A stretch of DNA of 64,000 nt from an uncultured Gammaproteobacteria bacterium. GTDB lineage: Bacteria; Patescibacteriota; Microgenomatia; Woykebacterales; RBG-16-39-9b. How positions within the stretch are numbered: position 1 is the first letter of the stretch; each line of letters opens with the position of its first letter. Location: positions 1,424 through 65,423 of the forward strand of contig CAYGGA010000003.1 in the NCBI GenBank assembly GCA_964349395.1, written 5' to 3'. Under the pieces are notes generated by a model. That model was not told where the DNA came from, did no database searches, and worked only from the letters and a program-made list of their open reading frames with translations. The translations under genes and the position numbers were made by a program. This document shows, piece by piece, positions 869 to 10,389 of this stretch.

Positions 869-2758
869 TTAGACTTTAAACTTTAATTCTCTGTCTGTCT
901 CTAGGAAGAATTTCTCTTTTTGCTTACCATTTACTTTGATGATCACTTCAGGCTGCCCAGTACCAGGTTGTTTCTGAATTAGCATTTTGTACTCCTGACC
1001 TTTTTTGATCTTCATGGGTATCTCATAAATAAACGTCACTGAGGCTGAGTTTTTAGGAGTTGTTTTCAGAACTGTTTGGTACATTTGTTTACCTAACTCC
1101 TTACTATTATTAAAACTTCCCTCAAGCAATTTACTACCATCCGGAACATAAATCCTCAACCAATTGGTGTATACAGTAGGATTGAGCCAACCATCAGCTT
1201 GTTTGGGATTAGCATTGGTGAAAGTTACTTTCTTAGTAACCGTCCCATCCTCTTTAATTGTAATATCTTGTTCAATCTTTTGAGCGACATACAGATCACC
1301 CTTTAGTCCAGCAAAGTTATTGGAATTAAAGTGGAGATAATCACCATCATAGTCCTGAATTCTACCCGCAAAATTGTATTTCTCCAGCAGGACTTGGGAA
1401 CTTTTGTCATGAGAGTAAGCCAAAAGATGCTTTTCCTTGGCCATTGTATGAACTACTTCGAGCAATTTGGGCCAAGTTTTTTTATCAGACCCCAAGACCT
1501 TGGCTTTCAAACCATTCATCAGTTGCCCAATTAAATCTTTCCTGTTTTCAGTCTTTGCCAAAAGCTGCTCTGAGTACAATTCTAATTTATAAACGACATC
1601 GGGAATACCATAATTTGGATTTATCTTAGCAGTAAAAGTTTCATTGTAAGCAGGCACATGGACTTCTCCCACTACCTCCAGAAGAGCCCAGACAAACTCA
1701 GTATCCAATGCTATTATTCCATCGATTGACGCCACACCAGTGGCACTGTCATACATGTCTTCAAAAAATCTCATCGACTCTACATAATCTGGGGAAATAT
1801 TGGCATCACGGATCCAAAATTTGTTTACTTTTAAATAATCTCTTAACTGGGTGGGAATGTCTGGTCTAAAAGTAACTTTATCATCCAAACGATAAGCATC
1901 TTCCGAAACAATTGATACTAGTCGACCTTTGCTGATTTTGGCAGTCGCGTAAGCAGTAATAAACCCACCGGTGGAACGAATTTCTTTGTCGTTCTGAAAG
2001 AGAATTAAATAAGTTTTGTCGACAGGGGAACCTAAAGCATTTGGTAGGGCCATCAAAATCGGCCGCAGCTCCGGCATGAAAGTCTCCAAATTGTCTACCG
2101 TAGTGATCGCTTGTTCAATACTACTTCGCACTTCATATTTACCAATTTTCTGGGGATATTTTTTTGCGTTCACCTGATCTAACTCTTTGCGAGCTAATTT
2201 CAATTTGTCTTCAATATCATCTAGGGCCGGAACAATTCTAGGCATGGCTTCGACTGCCTTTTGGGCGTATGTTTCCGCATTCCCCACACCGCCTCCTTCA
2301 AGACCTAAGGCAGCGGCAAAAGGAATCAGAGAATCAGCAATGATTACCCCAGCATCAGACCCATGAACCCCAGCTTTAATAAAATGATGACCATCACGGT
2401 AGTAACTACCCACCAACGGGACGATATTGGTCCAGGCAAAATAGCTCAGGTTTTTATCGAGTTTCACAAGCTCATCTTTTAGCTTGACTGTTTCTGCTCG
2501 AGCTTTATTTACATCTTGCAATTGCCAAGCTTCACTAAGCTTTTTGGCCTGATCACGGGTGACTTTTAATTGGGTGGTAAAGGTTTTAATTCCAGGAAAA
2601 GAGATAGCGACGATAACAGTACAGATAACTATAAAAATACCTAGACCAATAAGGGTGCGTTTAATTAGCTTTTTTCGTCTTGCAGAGTTAGAATTGGGCA
2701 ACTTTGTTGTTTGCGTCCCTTCTTGACTACCATTTATGTTAACATATTTAAGACTCAT
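869..2758 (-). CDS. DUF4012 domain protein, membrane-anchored with a large extracytoplasmic domain
   Basis: N-terminal TM helix after a basic stretch. Motif LILFQNDKEIRSTGGFITAYA matches the DUF4012 signature (QNnaElRatGGfig). Sits directly next to the priming sugar transferase, as in actinobacterial and CPR EPS loci. Confidence 0.6.
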   Translation of the reverse strand: MSLKYVNINGSQEGTQTTKLPNSNSARRKKLIKRTLIGLGIFIVICTVIVAISFPGIKTFTTQLKVTRDQAKKLSEAWQLQDVNKARAETVKLKDELVKLDKNLSYFAWTNIVPLVGSYYRDGHHFIKAGVHGSDAGVIIADSLIPFAAALGLEGGGVGNAETYAQKAVEAMPRIVPALDDIEDKLKLARKELDQVNAKKYPQKIGKYEVRSSIEQAITTVDNLETFMPELRPILMALPNALGSPVDKTYLILFQNDKEIRSTGGFITAYATAKISKGRLVSIVSEDAYRLDDKVTFRPDIPTQLRDYLKVNKFWIRDANISPDYVESMRFFEDMYDSATGVASIDGIIALDTEFVWALLEVVGEVHVPAYNETFTAKINPNYGIPDVVYKLELYSEQLLAKTENRKDLIGQLMNGLKAKVLGSDKKTWPKLLEVVHTMAKEKHLLAYSHDKSSQVLLEKYNFAGRIQDYDGDYLHFNSNNFAGLKGDLYVAQKIEQDITIKEDGTVTKKVTFTNANPKQADGWLNPTVYTNWLRIYVPDGSKLLEGSFNNSKELGKQMYQTVLKTTPKNSASVTFIYEIPMKIKKGQEYKMLIQKQPGTGQPEVIIKVNGKQKEKFFLETDRELKFKV

Positions 2759-3456: not shown

Positions 3457-4584
3457 CTATAGTAAGTGGGCTTTTTTGTCTTCGTTTAATTTTTCAACAA
3501 TTTTTTTAACATCCTGGGCTCTTTCCCGCGGGATGATGAGCAGGGCATCCGGAGTATCCACGATCACTAAATCACTTATTCCCACCGTGGCCACCAGTCG
3601 ATTATCACTATGGATCAGACATCCCACGGTATCCACCCCAATATGTTCCCCATCTCCTAAACCAGTTAATACATTCGCTTCTGGATGCTTAGCTGCGACC
3701 TCATACAACACATTCCAATCCCCAATATCACTCCAACCAAAATCCCCAGGTACAATGAGGACGTTTTTGGCTTTTTCCAAAACTCCATAGTCAATTGGTA
3801 TATTTTCCATTTGACCCCATTCTCTTTCTAAAACCTCGTTTTCCTCAGGTGTTCCGATGCTATTTTGAACTTTCATTAGTCCTGCGTAGTGGTCGGGCAT
3901 AAAATTCCGTAAAGCATTTATTAGGGTTTGGGCACGGTAACTATTTATATTGGCGTTCCAAAAATACTCCCCAGTCGCGACAAAGGCTTGAGCAGTGGGC
4001 AAATTTGGTTTCTCAGTGAAACTTTCCACTTCAAAAATAGATTGTTTTCTAGACTTGAGTTTTTCTGGACCAATGTGAATATAGCCTAAACCAGTGTGTG
4101 GATAGGTCGGCACGATCCCGATAGTAACCAGGTACTCACCGCTTTCGGCACTGTCTTGGGTTACGCCCAGAATGTGACGAAACTCACTTTCTTTTTTAAT
4201 CAAATGATCGGAAGCCAAAGTCGAGATAATAGCATCAGGATCCTTTTTCAAGATATGGATTGCTGCCAAACCCGCAGCAGCAGCGCTGCCTTTGGGGGAG
4301 GGTTCAGCTAAAATATTTTCTTCGGGGATTTGTGGTAACTGCTCCTTAACTTTTTTAGCATAATCCCCGGCCACCACAACATAAAGTCTATCGAAACTAA
4401 CTATAGATTCCACCCTTTTGGCGGTTTCTTGAAGCATGGAAAGATTGGAGACCAGTTTTAAAAATTGCTTGGGAGTATTTTTGCGGGAGCGGGGCCAAAG
4501 TCTGGTCCCACCACCTCCAGCCAAAATTACTATATACCTGTTATTTGTTTTTCGCGCTCCAGCGTTCAAGTTTGCCTTATCCAT
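3457..4584 (-). CDS. manC: Mannose-1-phosphate guanylyltransferase (nucleotidyltransferase domain only, no PMI domain)
   Basis: G-rich NTP-binding motif VILAGGGGTRLWPRSR..PKQF near the N-terminus. About 375 aa. Confidence 0.7.
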   Translation of the reverse strand: MDKANLNAGARKTNNRYIVILAGGGGTRLWPRSRKNTPKQFLKLVSNLSMLQETAKRVESIVSFDRLYVVVAGDYAKKVKEQLPQIPEENILAEPSPKGSAAAAGLAAIHILKKDPDAIISTLASDHLIKKESEFRHILGVTQDSAESGEYLVTIGIVPTYPHTGLGYIHIGPEKLKSRKQSIFEVESFTEKPNLPTAQAFVATGEYFWNANINSYRAQTLINALRNFMPDHYAGLMKVQNSIGTPEENEVLEREWGQMENIPIDYGVLEKAKNVLIVPGDFGWSDIGDWNVLYEVAAKHPEANVLTGLGDGEHIGVDTVGCLIHSDNRLVATVGISDLVIVDTPDALLIIPRERAQDVKKIVEKLNEDKKAHLL

Positions 4585-5674
4585 ATAGTTTTTCGACCAG
4601 TCTTTTCATATTGGTTTGGAAAGTTTCTACTGAAAATCTTTGGGCATTTTGCCCTATCATATCTGGGTCAAACTCTTTTGGGTTAAAGTCCTCCAAGGCT
4701 TCTTTTAGGCTTTGTGGGGTTTGATGTTTAAAAAATACCCCAGAGACTTTAGGGACAACTGATTCTAGCACACCACCAGCAAAGTAGGCAACCACAGGCT
4801 TTCTTGCAGCTTGAGCCTCTACCGGCACAATCCCAAAATCTTCTTCGGCGGCAAAGATCACTGCCTTACATCCAGCGATTAGTTTTTTCAACTTTTCGTC
4901 ATCCACTCTCCCCAAAATTTCTACATTACTTTTGGCCATTTTTTTAAGCTTTTCAAACTCCAAACCACTGCCAGCTACTTTTAGTGGCCACCCTAGCTCA
5001 TTAAAAGCTTCGACAATAATATCTGTTCTTTTGTGGGCGACCAACCGACCATAGGTAAAAAAATAGTTGCCAGTAGTTGGTTTTAGCTCAGCAAATTTTT
5101 TAATGTCCACTGGTGGGTAAATAACCTCTGCACTACGCTGATAATGCTTTTGAATACGTCCTTGAGTTTCTTTGGAATTAGTTACAAAATAATCTACCCT
5201 TCTAGCACTATCTTGGTCCCATTTTCGAACTACGCTGTACAACCAGCCCATGAAAGGTAAATATCTTTTTATTTTGGCATGATCTAGTTCGGTATCATAC
5301 CCATACAAATACCTGGAAGGAGTATGGCAGTAACAAACATTTATTCCCTCTTTTACAGTGGTGTGAATAGCCGCATAGGAGCTGGAAGTAATCACTACAT
5401 CATACCCTTTAAGATTTAAACTTCTAAAAGCTAGCGGATAAAGTAAAAAATAAAATTTGTAGAGTTGTCTTTTAAAAGGAAGGAACTGCATCCAGGTGGT
5501 TTTGACTTTTTTTAAATCTACACCAAAACCCTCTTTTTTCATTTTTTCTGCAAGGAGAAAACTGGTATAAATAGGAGCTTCAGGAAAAGTCACGGCCAGT
5601 GCTTCGACCACCTTTTCCGCCCCACCTACAGTCCACAAATAATCATGTACAATTGCTACTTTTGGTTTGCCCAT
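4577..5674 (-). CDS. Glycosyltransferase family 4
   Basis: C-terminal GT-B motif EDFGIVPVEAQAARKPVVAYFAGGVLE (E-x7-E type). Confidence 0.65.
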   Translation of the reverse strand: MGKPKVAIVHDYLWTVGGAEKVVEALAVTFPEAPIYTSFLLAEKMKKEGFGVDLKKVKTTWMQFLPFKRQLYKFYFLLYPLAFRSLNLKGYDVVITSSSYAAIHTTVKEGINVCYCHTPSRYLYGYDTELDHAKIKRYLPFMGWLYSVVRKWDQDSARRVDYFVTNSKETQGRIQKHYQRSAEVIYPPVDIKKFAELKPTTGNYFFTYGRLVAHKRTDIIVEAFNELGWPLKVAGSGLEFEKLKKMAKSNVEILGRVDDEKLKKLIAGCKAVIFAAEEDFGIVPVEAQAARKPVVAYFAGGVLESVVPKVSGVFFKHQTPQSLKEALEDFNPKEFDPDMIGQNAQRFSVETFQTNMKRLVEKLYG

Positions 5675-5819
5675 AAATAGAATTATATCAAGATTTCTTG
5701 GTTTAGAGAAAGGAACTGGGGTAGACTCTCTGTTTGGATATCAGCCACAGTTAATTGTAATTAAGAAGCCCATTTTCAATTTGACTGGTTGTGATTTCAA
5801 ATGATCGCTTTTGTCCCTA

Positions 5820-5848
5820 TTGACAAGCAATTGACCGCTTTCTAAACT
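5820..5848 (+). promoter_or_regulatory. Candidate sigma70-like promoter: TTGACA, 17-bp spacer, TAAACT
   Basis: Consensus -35 TTGACA at 5820-5825 and -10-like TAAACT at 5843-5848, in the only long intergenic region upstream of the plus-strand cassette. Confidence 0.3.
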
Positions 5849-5943
5849 GTTATTAGAAGAAAAACTTCGGTACATGTGGACAGCAGGGACCAACTAGTTT
5901 TTCCTCTTTTCAAAAATTTAATCTGTCTGCAAAGGACTGCTAC

Positions 5944-6075
5944 ATGGCTGCTTATTTTAAAATTGCTTTGCTCTTGCGGGCTTTAAGAAAAATTGAAGTT
6001 ATCTTTGACTTTGTCCTCAAGAAAAACAAACTCAATAGTTCCTTCTCTATAAATGAACTTACAGGATCCGTCTAA
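5944..6075 (+). CDS. Candidate 43-aa leader ORF (MAAYFKIALLLRALRKIEVIFDFVLKKNKLNSSFSINELTGSV)
   Basis: AAAGGA RBS at 5931-5936, 7 nt before the ATG at 5944. The TAA stop at 6073-6075 is the loop of the downstream terminator hairpin. Too short to appear in the ORF track. Confidence 0.3.
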   Translation: MAAYFKIALLLRALRKIEVIFDFVLKKNKLNSSFSINELTGSV

Positions 6076-6091
6076 GACGGATTCTTTTTTT
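6064..6091 (+). terminator. Intrinsic terminator-like hairpin (9-bp stem GGATCCGTC/GACGGATTC, 3-nt loop) followed by T7
   Basis: Seen directly: ggatccgtc-taa-gacggattc, then ttttttt, 17 nt upstream of the ATG of the TasA-like gene. The plus-strand orientation gives the U-tract. Confidence 0.5.
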
Positions 6092-6108
6092 GAAAGGAGG
6101 TGAATAAA

Positions 6109-6702
6109 ATGACAATTAATCCAAGAATCTTACTATCCATGGCCTCTATCGCAGCGGCAGCGACCCTCGGTATCGGCGCTACCTTTGCGTTCTTCTCAAG
6201 CACAGCGACAAGTACTGGTAACGTTTTCAGTACAGGGACACTAACCTTGTTACTTGACGACTTTAATGAGTTAACCCCTGCAGCTACTGTCACTGCATCA
6301 ATTGGGGCCACTATGAATCCTGGACAGACCACAACAGGTTTTGTTTCTTTGCACAATGGCGGAACGGTTGATATAGCAGAAGTCAACGTAGACTCAACAG
6401 CTACTGTACCAAGCTCACCAGATTTAGCGGATAAATTAAATATCACGTTAGCAAGAATAGGTTCAGAGTTCACTTGCACAGTAAGTCCGCTTGACGTAAC
6501 TGGAAGCTTTCCAGCAACCTTGGCTTTATTAAACGCCGATGTTGATGGTGTTGATCTGCCTGGAACTGCATTAGCAGCGCTAGGAACAGATAAGTATCTT
6601 TGTATGACCTTAACGTTGGATTCGGGAACTGACAACACCTATCAAGGTAAAACCATTACCGAAACCTTTACGTTCGTTGGTCATCAAGATCTGACTCAAT
6701 AA
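6109..6702 (+). CDS. TasA/camelysin (CalY)-family secreted protein with a SipW-cognate-class signal peptide
   Basis: N-terminus ...ATFAFFSSTATSTGNVFSTGTLTL matches the AFFSD..s.N.F.aGTLdL signature of TasA/camelysin/SipW-cognate signal peptides. GGAGG RBS 8 nt upstream of the ATG at 6109. The track start at 6100 is a GTG. Confidence 0.6.
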   Translation: MTINPRILLSMASIAAAATLGIGATFAFFSSTATSTGNVFSTGTLTLLLDDFNELTPAATVTASIGATMNPGQTTTGFVSLHNGGTVDIAEVNVDSTATVPSSPDLADKLNITLARIGSEFTCTVSPLDVTGSFPATLALLNADVDGVDLPGTALAALGTDKYLCMTLTLDSGTDNTYQGKTITETFTFVGHQDLTQ

Positions 6703-6712
6703 GAGGGGAATA

Positions 6713-7993
6713 ATGAATTCAAAACTCCTGAGTGGAGTAAAAATTACATTAGCAATTGTGCTGGTAGTGGTGACTGGGGTCTTCGCTTATCTGATCACAC
6801 CGATCTTTGGAAATAAAGTGTTGATCGTGAGAAGTGGGAGTATGTCTCCGTCTCTACCGGTTGGTTCTTTGGTGGCAATAAGGCCCAAAGAAGCACTCCG
6901 TAGCCCACTACCAGCCGTTCCCGTATATCATCCCGGAGATGTTATCTCCTTTAGAGATCCTCTAAACTCCAAAACCATTACTACTCACCGCGTAGTCAGC
7001 GCCAAAACAGAAAACTACTCCGTACTTTATCAAACCAAAGGTGATGCCAATAATGACACTGATCAGAGTTTGGTTGCCGAGAAAAATGTCTTAGGAGCAG
7101 CTTTTCTCACTGTCCCCTACTTAGGACAACTTTTCTCTTTTACTAAAACTGCTTTTGGTTTCTTGCTTTTAGTCCTTATGCCAGCTATATTTGTAATTTT
7201 GATGGAAAGCTGGAATATCATTAGGGAATTAAGAAAAAAGAAACCAATCCCCTATTTCTATCTCAAAGATTTTAAAAACTCAGTCACCCACGGCCCGACC
7301 CTGACTTCTCTAATTCCACTCCTAGCAATAGGCTTAATTTTCAGCCAAACTTTTGCCTATTTTTCTGATACTGCTACTAGCACCAGCAATGTTTTTGCCG
7401 CATCAGCAGAATTTCCCAATCAAAACATAGCAGATCATGTTGTTATTAGTGAAGTTCAAATAACAGGTGGCCCTGGATCTACAAATAATGATTTTATTGA
7501 GTTATATAACCCCACTGACTCACCAATTAATTTAGATCCTTATATATTAGTGAAACGTTCAGGGAGTAGTACTACAGACACCACAATTGTTACATTTACC
7601 TCTACCCATATAATTCCCGCTCAAGGGTTCTTTCTTTGGGCGAATAGTAGCTTCACTTCAATTTCTGCAGATATTGCAACAACTGATATTTTAGCATCTA
7701 GCAATAGTATCGCTCTCAAGGTTCAAACATCAGGTGTAATTGTTGATGCTTTAAGCTGGAATAATGCGACAGAAAGTTATAAAGAAGGAACTGAATTCTC
7801 CCCAGATCCGGATCCAGGGTCAAGTATGGAGAGAAAAGCGCTCTCAACTTCCACGGCAGCGACAATGGTTTCTCCTGGAATCGATGCCACTAAGGGTAAC
7901 GGTCATGACACCAACAACAATAGCACTGATTTTATTTTAAGACCTGTATCACAACCACAAAATAGCACTAGCGGAGGAACAGAAAGTCCTTAA
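6713..7993 (+). CDS. sipW: SipW-type (S26B, archaeal/ER-like) signal peptidase I fused in frame to a second SipW-cognate signal peptide and a lamin-tail domain (LTD)
   Basis: N-terminal TM, then catalytic region VRSGSMSPSLPVGSLV (Ser motif) and a C-terminal TM anchor (FGFLLLVLMPAIFVIL). The frame continues with no stop into ...FSQTFAYFSDTATSTSNVFAAS (second camelysin-type signal). After that comes ISEVQITGGPGSTNNDFIELYNPTD..., typical of an LTD (PF00932). Confidence 0.6.
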   Translation: MNSKLLSGVKITLAIVLVVVTGVFAYLITPIFGNKVLIVRSGSMSPSLPVGSLVAIRPKEALRSPLPAVPVYHPGDVISFRDPLNSKTITTHRVVSAKTENYSVLYQTKGDANNDTDQSLVAEKNVLGAAFLTVPYLGQLFSFTKTAFGFLLLVLMPAIFVILMESWNIIRELRKKKPIPYFYLKDFKNSVTHGPTLTSLIPLLAIGLIFSQTFAYFSDTATSTSNVFAASAEFPNQNIADHVVISEVQITGGPGSTNNDFIELYNPTDSPINLDPYILVKRSGSSTTDTTIVTFTSTHIIPAQGFFLWANSSFTSISADIATTDILASSNSIALKVQTSGVIVDALSWNNATESYKEGTEFSPDPDPGSSMERKALSTSTAATMVSPGIDATKGNGHDTNNNSTDFILRPVSQPQNSTSGGTESP

Positions 7994-9012
7994 TGAAAAA
8001 ATATTTGAGAATTATTAGTCTTACTTTGATCACTTCCTTACTGATTACTCTAAATGGTGGTTTGGATTTGAGCGCTCAGACTGCTCAAGCAGCTGGGGAT
8101 TTGACAGTGAATTGGGGTCCTGGCCTCTCTGAAGGCGACCCAATTTTTGTGGTTTCCAATATGTCTCCGGGACAAATGGAAACTAGAAGTGTTGGGGTAA
8201 CCAACTCTGCCCCCTCATCTAGATCGGTCGGAGTACGGGGTATCCCCACGGATGACAGTGATAGCCTCTCTTCCCAACTGAATATTTTAATCACTGAAGG
8301 AGCGGTTACTCGCTATGGCCCCCAAACTTTGGCTCAATTTTTCACAGCTAGCGGTGGTCCGGATGGAATTTTTCTCTCTAACCTTAACTCTGGGAATTCC
8401 ACGACCTATGATTTCCAGGTAACCTTCAAAGAAACATCTGGTAATAGCTGGCAAAACAAAAGTGTGGTTTTTGACCTAAAAATTGGAGTAGCCATTGATT
8501 TGCCCTCAGAATGTGATAATTTGAACCTATCCTCTACCCCGATTATTGGTTCCTCCAAAGCAGAAACTCTGACAGGTACCCCCGGAAACGATTTGATCAT
8601 GGGTTTAGAAGGAGCAGACAAAATCAATGGTAATGGGGGAGATGATTGCATACTGGGTGGTAGCGGCGCTGACAGTATAAATGGTAATAGTGATAATGAC
8701 GTAATCTTTGGTGAAGATGGTGCAGACACTATCAATGGCAACAATGGGGATGACATCATTGTGGGTGGAGTGGGAGCTGACAGTCTCAAGGGTGAAAACG
8801 GTCAAGATCACTTGCGGGGTGGTTTAAATGCGGATACTCTCGATGGTGGCAATAATGATGATATTTTAGAAGGTAATGAACACGCGGATACCTTAAAAGG
8901 CGGTAATGGGAGTGATAATTTAGATGGTGGAAGTGGAGTAGATACTGCTAATGGTAACAATGGGATAGACACTTGTGTAGCGGAAACCAGAAACAACTGT
9001 GAACTTCCCTAA
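7993..9012 (+). CDS. Secreted beta-roll protein with hemolysin-type calcium-binding (RTX) nonapeptide repeats; Sec signal peptide
   Basis: N-terminal signal (MKKYLRIISLTLITSLLITL...AQA). C-terminal half has at least 14 tandem 9-residue repeats GGxGxDxUx (GGSGADSIN GNSDNDVIF GEDGADTIN GNNGDDIIV ...). Confidence 0.7.
   Translation: MKKYLRIISLTLITSLLITLNGGLDLSAQTAQAAGDLTVNWGPGLSEGDPIFVVSNMSPGQMETRSVGVTNSAPSSRSVGVRGIPTDDSDSLSSQLNILITEGAVTRYGPQTLAQFFTASGGPDGIFLSNLNSGNSTTYDFQVTFKETSGNSWQNKSVVFDLKIGVAIDLPSECDNLNLSSTPIIGSSKAETLTGTPGNDLIMGLEGADKINGNGGDDCILGGSGADSINGNSDNDVIFGEDGADTINGNNGDDIIVGGVGADSLKGENGQDHLRGGLNADTLDGGNNDDILEGNEHADTLKGGNGSDNLDGGSGVDTANGNNGIDTCVAETRNNCELP
8575..8970 (+). repeat. Tandem 27-bp (nonapeptide) RTX repeat array inside the CDS
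   Basis: 27-nt periodicity in the protein (GNxxDxxxG pattern). It generates spurious antisense ORFs at 8406-8996. Confidence 0.65.
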
Positions 9013-9059
9013 AGGAAAGTAGCTGATCAAGCTTTGGAAAGCTGTATCAGCTACTGTAG

Positions 9060-10380
9060 GCTGCCTGGGCTAACAATGATGTTCTCCTGTTAGTTGGTCA
9101 GTGTCGTCCCCGTGAGGAAGACGGGGAAAGTTGCGGTACATTCTTGAAAAGGATCTCCTTTTTGACGTCGTCGGACAGCTCTGTAGTGTTGTCTCGCAGA
9201 GATATGAGCTGGGCGATGCGCATTTCCTTGGTAATTTGTCCCCTCTGGAACTTCTTCCAAATCTGGCGCACGCCGTCCTCGAATTTCTCCTCTGTACTGA
9301 TGAGCCGAAGCCCGTCAAGCACTGGTGGAGACTGACTATAAACACTCAAGGGTTCTTCTCCTTTCAACCTGGTGGCAGCCTAGGTAAAACTTAACACCAT
9401 TACTATCAAATTTCAATAGGGAATTTTGGGGAACCAGTTTGGAAAGAGCGGCACTTGGTTTGCTGTTGCAAACTAGTAATCCGCTCGTTATTTTCTGGCC
9501 GCCGAAGAGAGCCTCAGCTCACTTTCAACACTAATCTTTGGCATGTAGTGCTCAATAGCAAAGGGTGGAACCTCGACTCGAACCTCACCCCGCTAGGGTA
9601 AGCGATTGTCTTGCCTTTGCTTGAACTACTTGGTGTAGCCTCAGTACTGGTGCAGAATCGGAACGTCAATGAACTCTCTCCGGCGATGTGAGTTGCCATC
9701 TCACCATTGTAGAACTGGATAGGGTCAGACCCCTCAGGGTTGACTAGGCTGATTGGACAGAGACCACCACACCTTCCTCTTGTAGGAGAGCAGGTATTCC
9801 TTGCGGAGCCAATGCTTTCCAGTACACAGGGTGACCTCTTTGCACACCCAGGAGTAGGTCGCCAATTGTGCTAATTGCCTGCGACTCGGGACTGCTTTCA
9901 ACCTTGATCGTATCGCCTTGCCAGACTTTCGAAACGTGATCTCCACCTTCGAATTCCGGCGTGGCAGTAATACTGGCTGCTTTTTTCGAGCTTCTCAGCA
10001 CGTTCTGAATAGCCAACATCTCCACCAAGGCCGTTCGTCCCGCATGGACATGACCATCGTAGACTGACGAAGCTGACCCACTTGGGGAAACAGCATTTTT
10101 CACGAGTACCTCATAAAGAACGCGAACGGACTCCAGAAGGTGCTCGACTGGGTCAGGAGTTTTCTTCAGCAAGGCAGCCGAACTGCCCACTTATTTAAAC
10201 TCCAGACAGAATTCAGCGGCGGGGAGGGTTCCACTTCTCTCCACCAATGACATGATCTCTCACCTCACGGGCATATTGCCCCAATGACTGATGAGATGGC
10301 AACGATCTAAAAACAAAATCTATTTTCAAACCGTTGCCACTCAACTAGCAACCAATATTATCACAAAAGCAATTAGTTGT
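9060..10380. other. Compositionally anomalous GC-rich (~50% GC) segment in a convergent intergenic position; no intact gene; possible pseudogene remnant, foreign DNA or structured RNA
   Basis: Sharp GC jump against ~37% flanks. Only short overlapping ORFs (89, 91, 148 aa) with GC3-rich codon usage unlike the rest of the window. Stop-to-stop bounded. No recognisable domain. Confidence 0.4.
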
Positions 10381-10389
10381 TCAAGGTTA

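Follow-up and report, generated by a model that had tools for sequence, protein, structure and literature searches.

The window analyzed here is a stretch of 64 kb of contig CAYGGA010000003.1, and within it we consider the regulatory region of a small plus-strand gene cassette for a putative extracellular fibre. The first gene of this cassette, at 6109..6702, codes for a member of the TasA/camelysin family that carries a SipW-dependent signal peptide (PF12389, E = 1e-10; TIGR04088 above cut-off), and it is this gene that we regard as the regulated one. It is followed on the same strand by a gene (6713..7993) whose product, according to profile matches, joins a signal peptidase I of the SipW (archaeal) type to a further SipW-type signal peptide and a lamin-tail domain (LTD), and then by the last gene of the cassette (7993..9012), which codes for a secreted protein with RTX calcium-binding repeats recognized by Pfam and lies in the same gene order in relatives. 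Since the locus combines TasA-like, SipW-type peptidase and RTX genes, the label “fibre cassette” is a reasonable one. The upstream gene (4577-5674) codes for a GT4 glycosyltransferase on the opposite strand, making 5675-6108 a divergent intergenic region, and the cassette as a whole is embedded in a large envelope-glycan gene cluster. Three other assemblies contain the region in identical form, and the closest named relative is a Candidatus Levybacteria metagenome-assembled genome (MAG). We tentatively read the interval 5799-6108, with somewhat less than even confidence, as the promoter and a leader of ~254 nucleotides (nt) of the TasA-like/SipW/RTX fibre cassette.

The promoter is of the sigma-70 type (5820..5848, plus strand), with the -35 hexamer TTGACA at 5820-5825, a spacer of 17 nt and the -10 hexamer TAAACT at 5843-5848. 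This near-consensus site, from which the initial annotation had started its leader, is present in the sequence, was recovered by a consensus scan and aligns with the TTGACA...TAnAnT promoters of relatives. It matches the consensus at 10 of 12 positions and ties with one other site for the best score between 4500 and 8500, an interval that shows no enrichment of promoter-like sites (10 versus 7.8 expected from shuffles). An alignment of 13 promoters of TasA-like genes displays an invariant TTGAC, a TAnAnT -10 element and upstream TTTGAT and TTTGTCC-N3 boxes, all of them common to the window, where the conserved columns upstream of the promoter correspond to the boxes AAATGAT (5799-5805) and TTTGTCC (5810-5816), together spanning 5799..5816 on the plus strand. 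Judged by this alignment, the promoter at 5820-5848 is homologous to the promoters of the TasA-like genes of relatives. Transcription would start near 5855, a position that gives the predicted leader its length of ~254 nt.

Within this leader lies an upstream open reading frame (uORF) of 43 codons (MAAYFKIALLLRALRKIEVIFDFVLKKNKLNSSFSINELTGSV; 5944..6075, plus strand), which begins with the ATG at 5944 and is supported by the list of open reading frames (ORFs), by gene calls in three assemblies and by its codon score. It is preceded by a moderate Shine-Dalgarno (SD) sequence, AAAGGA at 5931..5936, situated 7 nt 5' of the ATG, whose duplex of -5.8 kcal/mol is stronger than the median for the genes of the window (-3.8 kcal/mol). 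Both this frame and its ribosome-binding site are therefore in the sequence as originally described. The codon score of the uORF, 0.176 per codon, compares with -0.03 +/- 0.11 for spurious ORFs; it falls at the 26th percentile of real gene segments and exceeds those of all 66 spurious ORFs of similar length, and the other frames of the region score negative (P 0.04-0.08 versus shuffles or leader windows). Its codon usage, a check that had been proposed for this frame, is accordingly mildly gene-like rather than random, and a 43-codon open frame is only moderately unlikely at 35% GC. The 43-amino-acid peptide belongs to no Pfam family, and a search among 5.8 billion proteins returned only the identical sequence. 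The codon table of the uORF holds neither runs of regulatory codons nor tandem rare codons, and T-rich stretches occur within it.

The TAA stop codon of the uORF (6073-6075) forms the loop of an intrinsic terminator (6063..6091, plus strand), which is evident from the sequence, a consensus scan and folding. Its 5' arm, GGATCCGTC (6064-6072), which comprises the last three sense codons of the uORF, pairs with GACGGATTC (6076-6084) in a stem of 9 bp with one G.U and five G-C pairs; an optional tenth pair, A6063-U6085, extends it to 10 bp, and a run of seven T follows at 6085-6091. The central observation of the initial annotation, namely that the stop codon is exactly the 3-nt loop of a GC-rich 9-bp hairpin (6064-6084) followed by T7, can hence be read directly from the sequence. 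The hairpin folds at -13.4 kcal/mol versus -4.1 +/- 1.9 kcal/mol for shuffled sequences (z = -4.8), with 0 of 200 shuffles as good. When both strands of the 64 kb were scanned for stems of 8 bp or more that contain 4 or more G-C pairs and are followed by 6 or more T within 8 nt, 2 sites were recovered versus a mean of 0.4 in dinucleotide shuffles; 6063-6091 is the only one of them to lie in an intergenic leader anywhere in the 64 kb.

As the upstream gene lies on the opposite strand, this plus-strand terminator is not that of the preceding gene. The spacing of 17 nt between the T-run and the fibre gene given by the initial annotation is exact, with the ATG itself at 6109-6111 and not at 6110, and because no promoter fits into so short a gap, any polymerase reaching the fibre gene must pass the terminator. 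A second promoter between the hairpin and the TasA-like ATG is ruled out in the window by the same gap. We also considered TATAAAT at 6048-6054 as an alternative promoter and rejected it, as it lacks a -35 hexamer and its transcript would still meet the terminator. The elements are thus non-random and lie obligatorily upstream of the gene, in the order expected of a direct-occlusion attenuator, with the terminator between the promoter at 5820-5848 and the gene, and no promoter downstream of it. No antiterminator was found: the best upstream partner of the 5' arm reaches only -6.6 kcal/mol versus -12.8 to -13.4 kcal/mol for the terminator, and this lack of an alternative hairpin fits occlusion rather than a trp-type switch. 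The segment AAUCUGUC (5920-5927), tried as an antiterminator, was discarded since it pairs with the 3' arm (-9.6 kcal/mol) and would not prevent termination. A search of the 64-kb window at the gathering scores of Rfam 15 gave 0 matches, and a permissive search of 5600-6200 gave chance-level matches only; the best of the sub-threshold matches, to RatA (24 bits versus a gathering score of 49, E = 0.97), was rejected as being driven by CCGUCUAAGACGG of the terminator stem.

We then compared this layout with the corresponding loci of relatives. The TasA-like protein has 60 detectable homologues, of which the best after the identical copy is 71% identical; given this divergence the leaders are not alignable base by base, and only their architecture was compared, across 19 distinct relatives' loci (denoted L with a number below) whose TasA-like proteins are 52-71% identical. 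The conserved end of the leader is the SD sequence of the TasA-like gene, GAAAGGAGGTGA (6092..6103, plus strand in the window), which is complementary to ~11-12 nt of the canonical 16S 3' end, precedes every TasA-like gene examined and, at -18.7 kcal/mol versus a median of -3.8 kcal/mol for the genes of the window, is the strongest SD in the window. The promoter-to-ATG distance across relatives ranges from 34 to 371 nt, and as promoter and SD are both conserved while the distance between them varies, a variable leader has been inserted between a conserved promoter and a conserved SD. A hairpin with a T-run occurs in the leaders of 11 of the 19 loci, with energies of -8 to -13 kcal/mol and ends 24-255 nt before the ATG, and elements analogous to the terminator of the window were identified in 10 relatives. 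In all, 12 hairpin matches occur in 5,100 nt of TasA-like leaders, where the density in the remainder of these loci would predict 2.5 (~5-fold; P = 1.2e-5), one of the 12 being really the terminator of an upstream gene. The upstream gene is divergent in several of these loci, and in at least six the gap from terminator to SD is 17-62 nt, which is too short for a promoter; inspection by eye of L010, L011 and L019 showed no TTGACA-like site 3' of the hairpin.

Short frames ending at the hairpin are likewise recurrent. Defining a uORF as an ATG-initiated ORF of at least 10 codons whose stop falls in a zone reaching from 12 nt upstream to 10 nt downstream of the hairpin, we observed one (13-43 codons) in 9 of the first 10 hairpin-bearing leaders, versus 2.6 of 10 expected when the 200 nt upstream are shuffled (P = 2.6e-5). 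Four of these uORFs, those of the window, L005, L013 and L004, terminate within the loop, and that of L024 terminates where loop and 3' arm meet. The L019 frame ends in the 5' arm, those of L025 and L010 end 2-10 nt short of the stem, and that of L011 runs through the hairpin to a stop just after the T-run. The locus L030, which was retrieved after the rule had been set, raises the count to 10 of 11: its 23-codon uORF stops 8 nt before a hairpin of -12.9 kcal/mol with T6, and it also possesses a promoter with a TTTTGAT box and a TTGTCC box, followed after the hairpin by AAAGGAGGTGA and the ATG. If two inverted modules that precede a different gene are included, 9 of 12 conform, versus a shuffle expectation of ~2.7 of 12 (P ~1e-4), and across five ATG-only settings P ranges from 3e-5 to 6e-3. 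The encoded peptides, of 13-43 amino acids, display no detectable mutual similarity and no enriched residue, so that the conserved feature is an open frame reaching the hairpin and not a protein; the dual-function small protein contemplated in the initial annotation accordingly looks less likely, as the window peptide has no homologue among the 5.8 billion proteins and those of the relatives are unrelated to it. Conservation of the arrangement, also raised there, holds at the level of architecture, with the layout of promoter, uORF, terminator and SD recurring in 10 of 11 hairpin-bearing leaders; it does not extend to the bases themselves, as the leaders do not align and MAFFT with RNAalifold on 12 hairpin regions yielded 0 consensus pairs. 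Leaderless mRNAs for the uORFs were considered and rejected, as inspection by eye showed no -10 hexamer suitably spaced from the uORF ATGs of the relatives.

The two inverted modules belong to L009 (gene at 1902-2492, minus strand) and L029 (gene at 1033-1692, minus strand). The genes they precede are divergent from the TasA-like gene and code for a secreted repeat protein with the motif TGxNxAxNNTGGxV, 33% identical between the two loci and matching no Pfam or NCBIfam family, and each is preceded by a module of box, uORF, hairpin and strong SD that is inverted relative to the TasA-like gene. The L009 upstream gene was tested as a TasA paralogue and rejected, being a different secreted repeat protein.

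The boxes of these modules conform to the motif YTGYCC, often CTGCCCAA, which was defined after looking at the data and which occurs 22 times in sense versus 3 times in antisense in 12 promoter-leader regions (shuffle mean 2.9, maximum 8). The window has two copies, at 5811-5816 within the TTTGTCC box of 5810-5816, which lies 3 nt 5' of the -35 hexamer, and at 6011..6016 (TTGTCC, plus strand) within the uORF, where it precedes the hairpin by 52 nt. A copy is found 16-90 nt upstream of nearly every leader hairpin, usually near the uORF ATG and with variable spacing, and since the motif occurs in three different frames relative to the uORFs it is evidently conserved as nucleotides and not as codons. 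Outside the TasA-like genes and the gene for the secreted repeat protein of the L009/L029 type, box, hairpin, strong SD and ORF are hardly ever found together; WCTGYCCAA and ATGAAATCTGCCCAA are not enriched in the 64-kb window. We consider the boxes probably to be the binding site of a putative regulator. Copies upstream of the -35 hexamer, hence untranscribed, are present in the window (5811), L025, L011, L021 and L016, and would argue for a DNA-binding transcription factor; those in the leader could, by analogy with LoaP and the eps-associated RNA (EAR), equally serve to recruit an antiterminator as ops-like or RNA sites (PMC7858274). Within ~10 kb to either side, the genes of the window include none for a NusG paralogue or another regulator.

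Based on this layout, we propose that the leader might be a direct-occlusion attenuator of the pyrBI/pyrE type, in which a ribosome masks the terminator hairpin, a reading to which we incline while giving it a little short of an even chance. Under this proposal RNA polymerase would start near 5855 and meet the strong intrinsic terminator at 6063-6091, 17 nt before the fibre gene. If the terminator is active in the organism and nothing interferes, the hairpin would form and the transcript would end as a leader RNA of ~235 nt. If instead the uORF is translated by a ribosome close behind the polymerase, that ribosome would hold the 5' arm (6064-6072) in its mRNA channel, the hairpin would be blocked and the polymerase would continue into the cassette. 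The peptide would be irrelevant, only the act of translation mattering, and the likeliest signal would accordingly be general translational capacity or coupling rather than a single amino acid. A ribosome with the TAA in its A site would cover ~6058-6088, that is, the whole hairpin, and one a few codons earlier would already hold the 5' arm. In Escherichia coli, shifting a stop codon that lay 28 nt before a terminator to a position 5 nt before it reduced termination from ~90% to <10%, an effect that was lost when translation was uncoupled, and no repression was seen beyond ~27 nt (PMC4824070); the stop-in-loop geometry of the uORF lies within this ~27-nt range of direct masking. A small RNA, raised as an option in the initial annotation, may be a by-product of leader transcription.

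Among described systems the closest parallel is pyrBI of E. coli, whose leader ORF pyrL is of similar size (135 bp, versus 132 bp here) and overlaps a terminator before the gene, and in which read-through needs a ribosome tightly behind the polymerase and no antiterminator hairpin is involved (PMC5021804, PMC4824070). The two differ in that pyrL runs through the whole terminator whereas the uORF of the window stops in the loop, although L011 and the inverted modules of L009/L029 have ORFs that do run through; moreover, pyrBI relies on UTP-sensitive pausing at U-runs and belongs to a pyrimidine operon, whereas the genes here are for a secreted fibre, and there is no sequence homology with pyrBI. 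In the E. coli rph-pyrE operon, how strongly pyrE is expressed depends on where the rph stop codon falls relative to the attenuator loop (PMC2784333), yet there the upstream ORF is a full-length gene of the pyrimidine regulon and not a dedicated short uORF. The trp, his, leu and pheA attenuators and the antibiotic-inducible stalling attenuators share with the window a short, poorly conserved leader peptide and a promoter-proximal terminator, but they employ antiterminator/terminator hairpins, regulatory codons or stalling motifs, whereas the window has neither codon runs nor an antiterminator. In the classical attenuators the terminator lies >20 nt from the leader stop, avoiding direct masking (PMC4824070), and a stop inside the hairpin therefore groups the present geometry with pyrBI and pyrE and not with trp. 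RfaH-ops, LoaP and the B. subtilis EAR resemble the leader in combining a leader element with a strand-specific motif in operons for extracellular structures (PMC7858274), but the window has no Rfam EAR match, its boxes lie also 5' of the -35 hexamer, a single terminator abuts the first gene, and the NusG paralogue of the RfaH/LoaP systems has no counterpart within ~10 kb on either side. The cassette itself is reminiscent of tapA-sipW-tasA of Bacillus subtilis in pairing a TasA-family fibre protein with a SipW-type signal peptidase, while differing in gene order and partners (the LTD fusion and the RTX protein). To our knowledge, regulation of the Bacillus operon is exerted at the promoter through SinR, AbrB and RemA, and no leader attenuator takes part. 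Attenuation of the occlusion type by a leader ORF and terminator is thus a known kind, with none described for this lineage or gene class in the literature searched.

Several observations weigh against attenuation by ribosomal occlusion. In E. coli it is rare for a ribosome to draw level with the polymerase over the initial 100 nt unless a programmed pause intervenes (PMC4824070). Any ordinary small gene would also show an ORF that ends at a terminator. The device is absent from 8 of the 19 relatives, including L009, L020 and L021, whose TasA-like proteins are closest to that of the window among the retrieved loci (67-69% identity); in L009 and L020 the promoter lies 34-47 nt from the ATG. No recognizable SD precedes 6 of the 9 relatives' uORFs that were scored, with only about a third of the genes of the window themselves carrying a strong SD. 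Most of the relatives' uORFs have just 13-23 codons and show no codon-usage signal, being so short as to be uninformative in this respect; L006 lacks an ATG uORF altogether, and in the inverted modules of L009 and L029 the ORF extends far beyond the hairpin. Further, the shuffle P-values overstate independence as the relatives share ancestry, and the stop zone was chosen after the first cases had been seen, with one out-of-sample locus (L030) in agreement. The translation-coupled antitermination put forward in the initial annotation consequently draws support from promoter homology, the recurrent layout, uORF codon usage and geometry, and is weakened by the loci without the device, the lack of an SD before most relatives' uORFs and the YTGYCC boxes; those of its proposed refuting conditions that sequence can address do not overturn it. 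The boxes, being conserved and strand-specific, point to an additional or alternative trans-acting factor: an RfaH/LoaP-like protein or another RNA- or DNA-binding antiterminator might read the boxes, the uORFs being incidental or modulatory. The strand bias of the boxes (22 versus 3), their position 16-90 nt upstream of nearly every leader hairpin, their nucleotide-level conservation across three reading frames and the near-restriction of the combined module to TasA-like genes and one other secreted protein all favour such a factor, as does the fact that surface and matrix operons with terminator-bypass leader elements are known, namely those with LoaP and EAR (PMC7858274). However, it would leave unexplained the ATG ORFs ending at the hairpin in 10 of 11 leaders; the untranscribed boxes 5' of the -35 hexamer are easier to reconcile with an ordinary promoter transcription factor than with an ops-like or RNA element; the distance from box to hairpin varies, no candidate regulator gene lies in the ~10-kb surroundings, and the motif was a post hoc one. 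We accordingly regard control by a factor of this kind as unlikely, while taking it seriously.

The resemblance to an ordinary small gene may also be taken at face value, such that a stand-alone small RNA or small-peptide unit lies before the cassette and the fibre genes are expressed by constitutive leak-through of its terminator, with no coupling. A promoter, an ORF and a terminator overlapping its stop are normal gene anatomy, stop-to-terminator distances of <50 nt, and overlaps, are common (PMC4824070), the 43-amino-acid ORF is annotated by gene callers in three assemblies, and the module is separable from the TasA-like gene in L009 and L029, where it stands inverted beside a TasA-like gene with its own close promoter. 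We nevertheless deem this rather improbable: the peptides lack mutual similarity and that of the window lacks any homologue or family; the inverted modules again precede a strong-SD gene for a secreted protein, so that the unit is always a leader and never free-standing; at least six loci, with gaps of 17-62 nt, have no room for a promoter before the TasA-like SD; and the gene with the strongest SD in the region would have to rely on leak through a hairpin of about -13 kcal/mol with T6-T8. A metabolite riboswitch or other structured cis-regulatory RNA with the terminator as its expression platform, an alternative already entertained in the initial annotation, would suit a long leader (~254 nt) that ends in a terminator beside the SD and folds somewhat better as a whole than shuffled sequences (z = -1.96). 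It is nonetheless very improbable, given that no Rfam family reaches threshold in the window (the best sub-threshold match being RatA at E = 0.97), that the leaders of relatives, at 34-371 nt, have no alignable or foldable common core or conserved structure, and that no alternative antiterminator is predicted. Finally, a promoter-like site, an open frame and a hairpin might have come together by accident in an intergenic region rich in A and T, as could be suggested by the unremarkable frequency of promoter-like sites (10 versus 7.8 expected in 4500-8500) and by the modest improbability of a 43-codon frame at 35% GC, but this is scarcely credible in the face of the terminator statistics (z = -4.8; 2 sites versus 0.4 in 64 kb), the homologous promoters of relatives and the recurrence of the layout, including in the out-of-sample L030.

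Returning to the occlusion attenuator, we further entertain, as a doubtful extension, a portable leader module of Levybacteria-like members of the Candidate Phyla Radiation (CPR/Microgenomates), composed of a TTTGAT/TTGTCC promoter, sense YTGYCC boxes, a throw-away uORF running into an intrinsic terminator, and a near-perfect SD, and deployed in either orientation before genes for abundant secreted proteins, these being the TasA-like fibre subunit and the repeat protein of the L009/L029 type; in this scheme a box-binding factor and ribosome-polymerase coupling would together license fibre export by translation capacity. Such a module would amount to a checkpoint suited to ultra-small cells with few ribosomes. 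CPR bacteria are not culturable alone and have minimal regulatory repertoires, and regulatory RNA and attenuation in them are almost unexplored; the leader, if it operates as proposed, would offer a testable case of transcription-translation coupling as a gene switch outside the model phyla, placed before a major secreted fibre gene. The YTGYCC and promoter boxes would then provide a handle on the control of TasA-like fibres in episymbiotic or ultra-small cells, and the ORF end together with its hairpin and T-run would constitute a compact natural part of ~50 nt whose read-through should scale with ribosome proximity. If the terminator is only leaky, the finding is an ordinary one.

Folding of the leader revealed two further features. 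A predicted stem-loop of -10.7 kcal/mol at its 5' end (5859..5903, plus strand) is present in every fold of the leader. Immediately downstream, an anti-SD segment, CCUCUUUUCAAAAA (5903..5916, plus strand), is predicted to pair with 6087-6100, comprising the U-tract and the SD, with a pairing probability of ~1.0 in the full leader. This 14-bp helix has an energy of -17.6 kcal/mol versus -11.6 +/- 1.8 kcal/mol for shuffles (P = 0.003), and its equivalent is not significant in any of 9 relatives. In the folding model the helix would sequester the SD of the fibre gene in read-through transcripts, as a feature specific to the window and outside the conserved mechanism.

Some additional observations concern the remainder of the cassette and the relatives' loci. 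In the fusion protein encoded by 6713-7993 the signal peptidase occupies residues ~13-175 and the second SipW-type signal peptide residues ~205-230; these are separate genes in several relatives. Directly after the stop codon of the RTX gene at 9012 lies a 36-nt palindromic hairpin (9019-9054; -17.4 kcal/mol) with no plus-strand T-run, which may be the 3' end structure of the cassette. The stretch of ~1.4 kb (9013-10389) that separates the RTX gene from the following glycosyltransferase gene has no ORF longer than 150 amino acids and a GC content of 0.49-0.52 versus ~0.40 elsewhere; its ORF fragments have no Pfam matches and the interval no Rfam match, and it may represent a decayed foreign gene or a non-coding element. 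In L028 (480-588) the usual leader of the TasA-like gene is replaced by a gene for a 23S-rRNA-intervening-sequence protein and AGTTCA-containing repeats. The loci L004, L005 and L006, which come from GTDB representative MAGs with a Levybacteria-like cassette, are titled “uncultured Gammaproteobacteria bacterium”, and these titles probably reflect mislabelled taxonomy in third-party annotation (TPA) assemblies.

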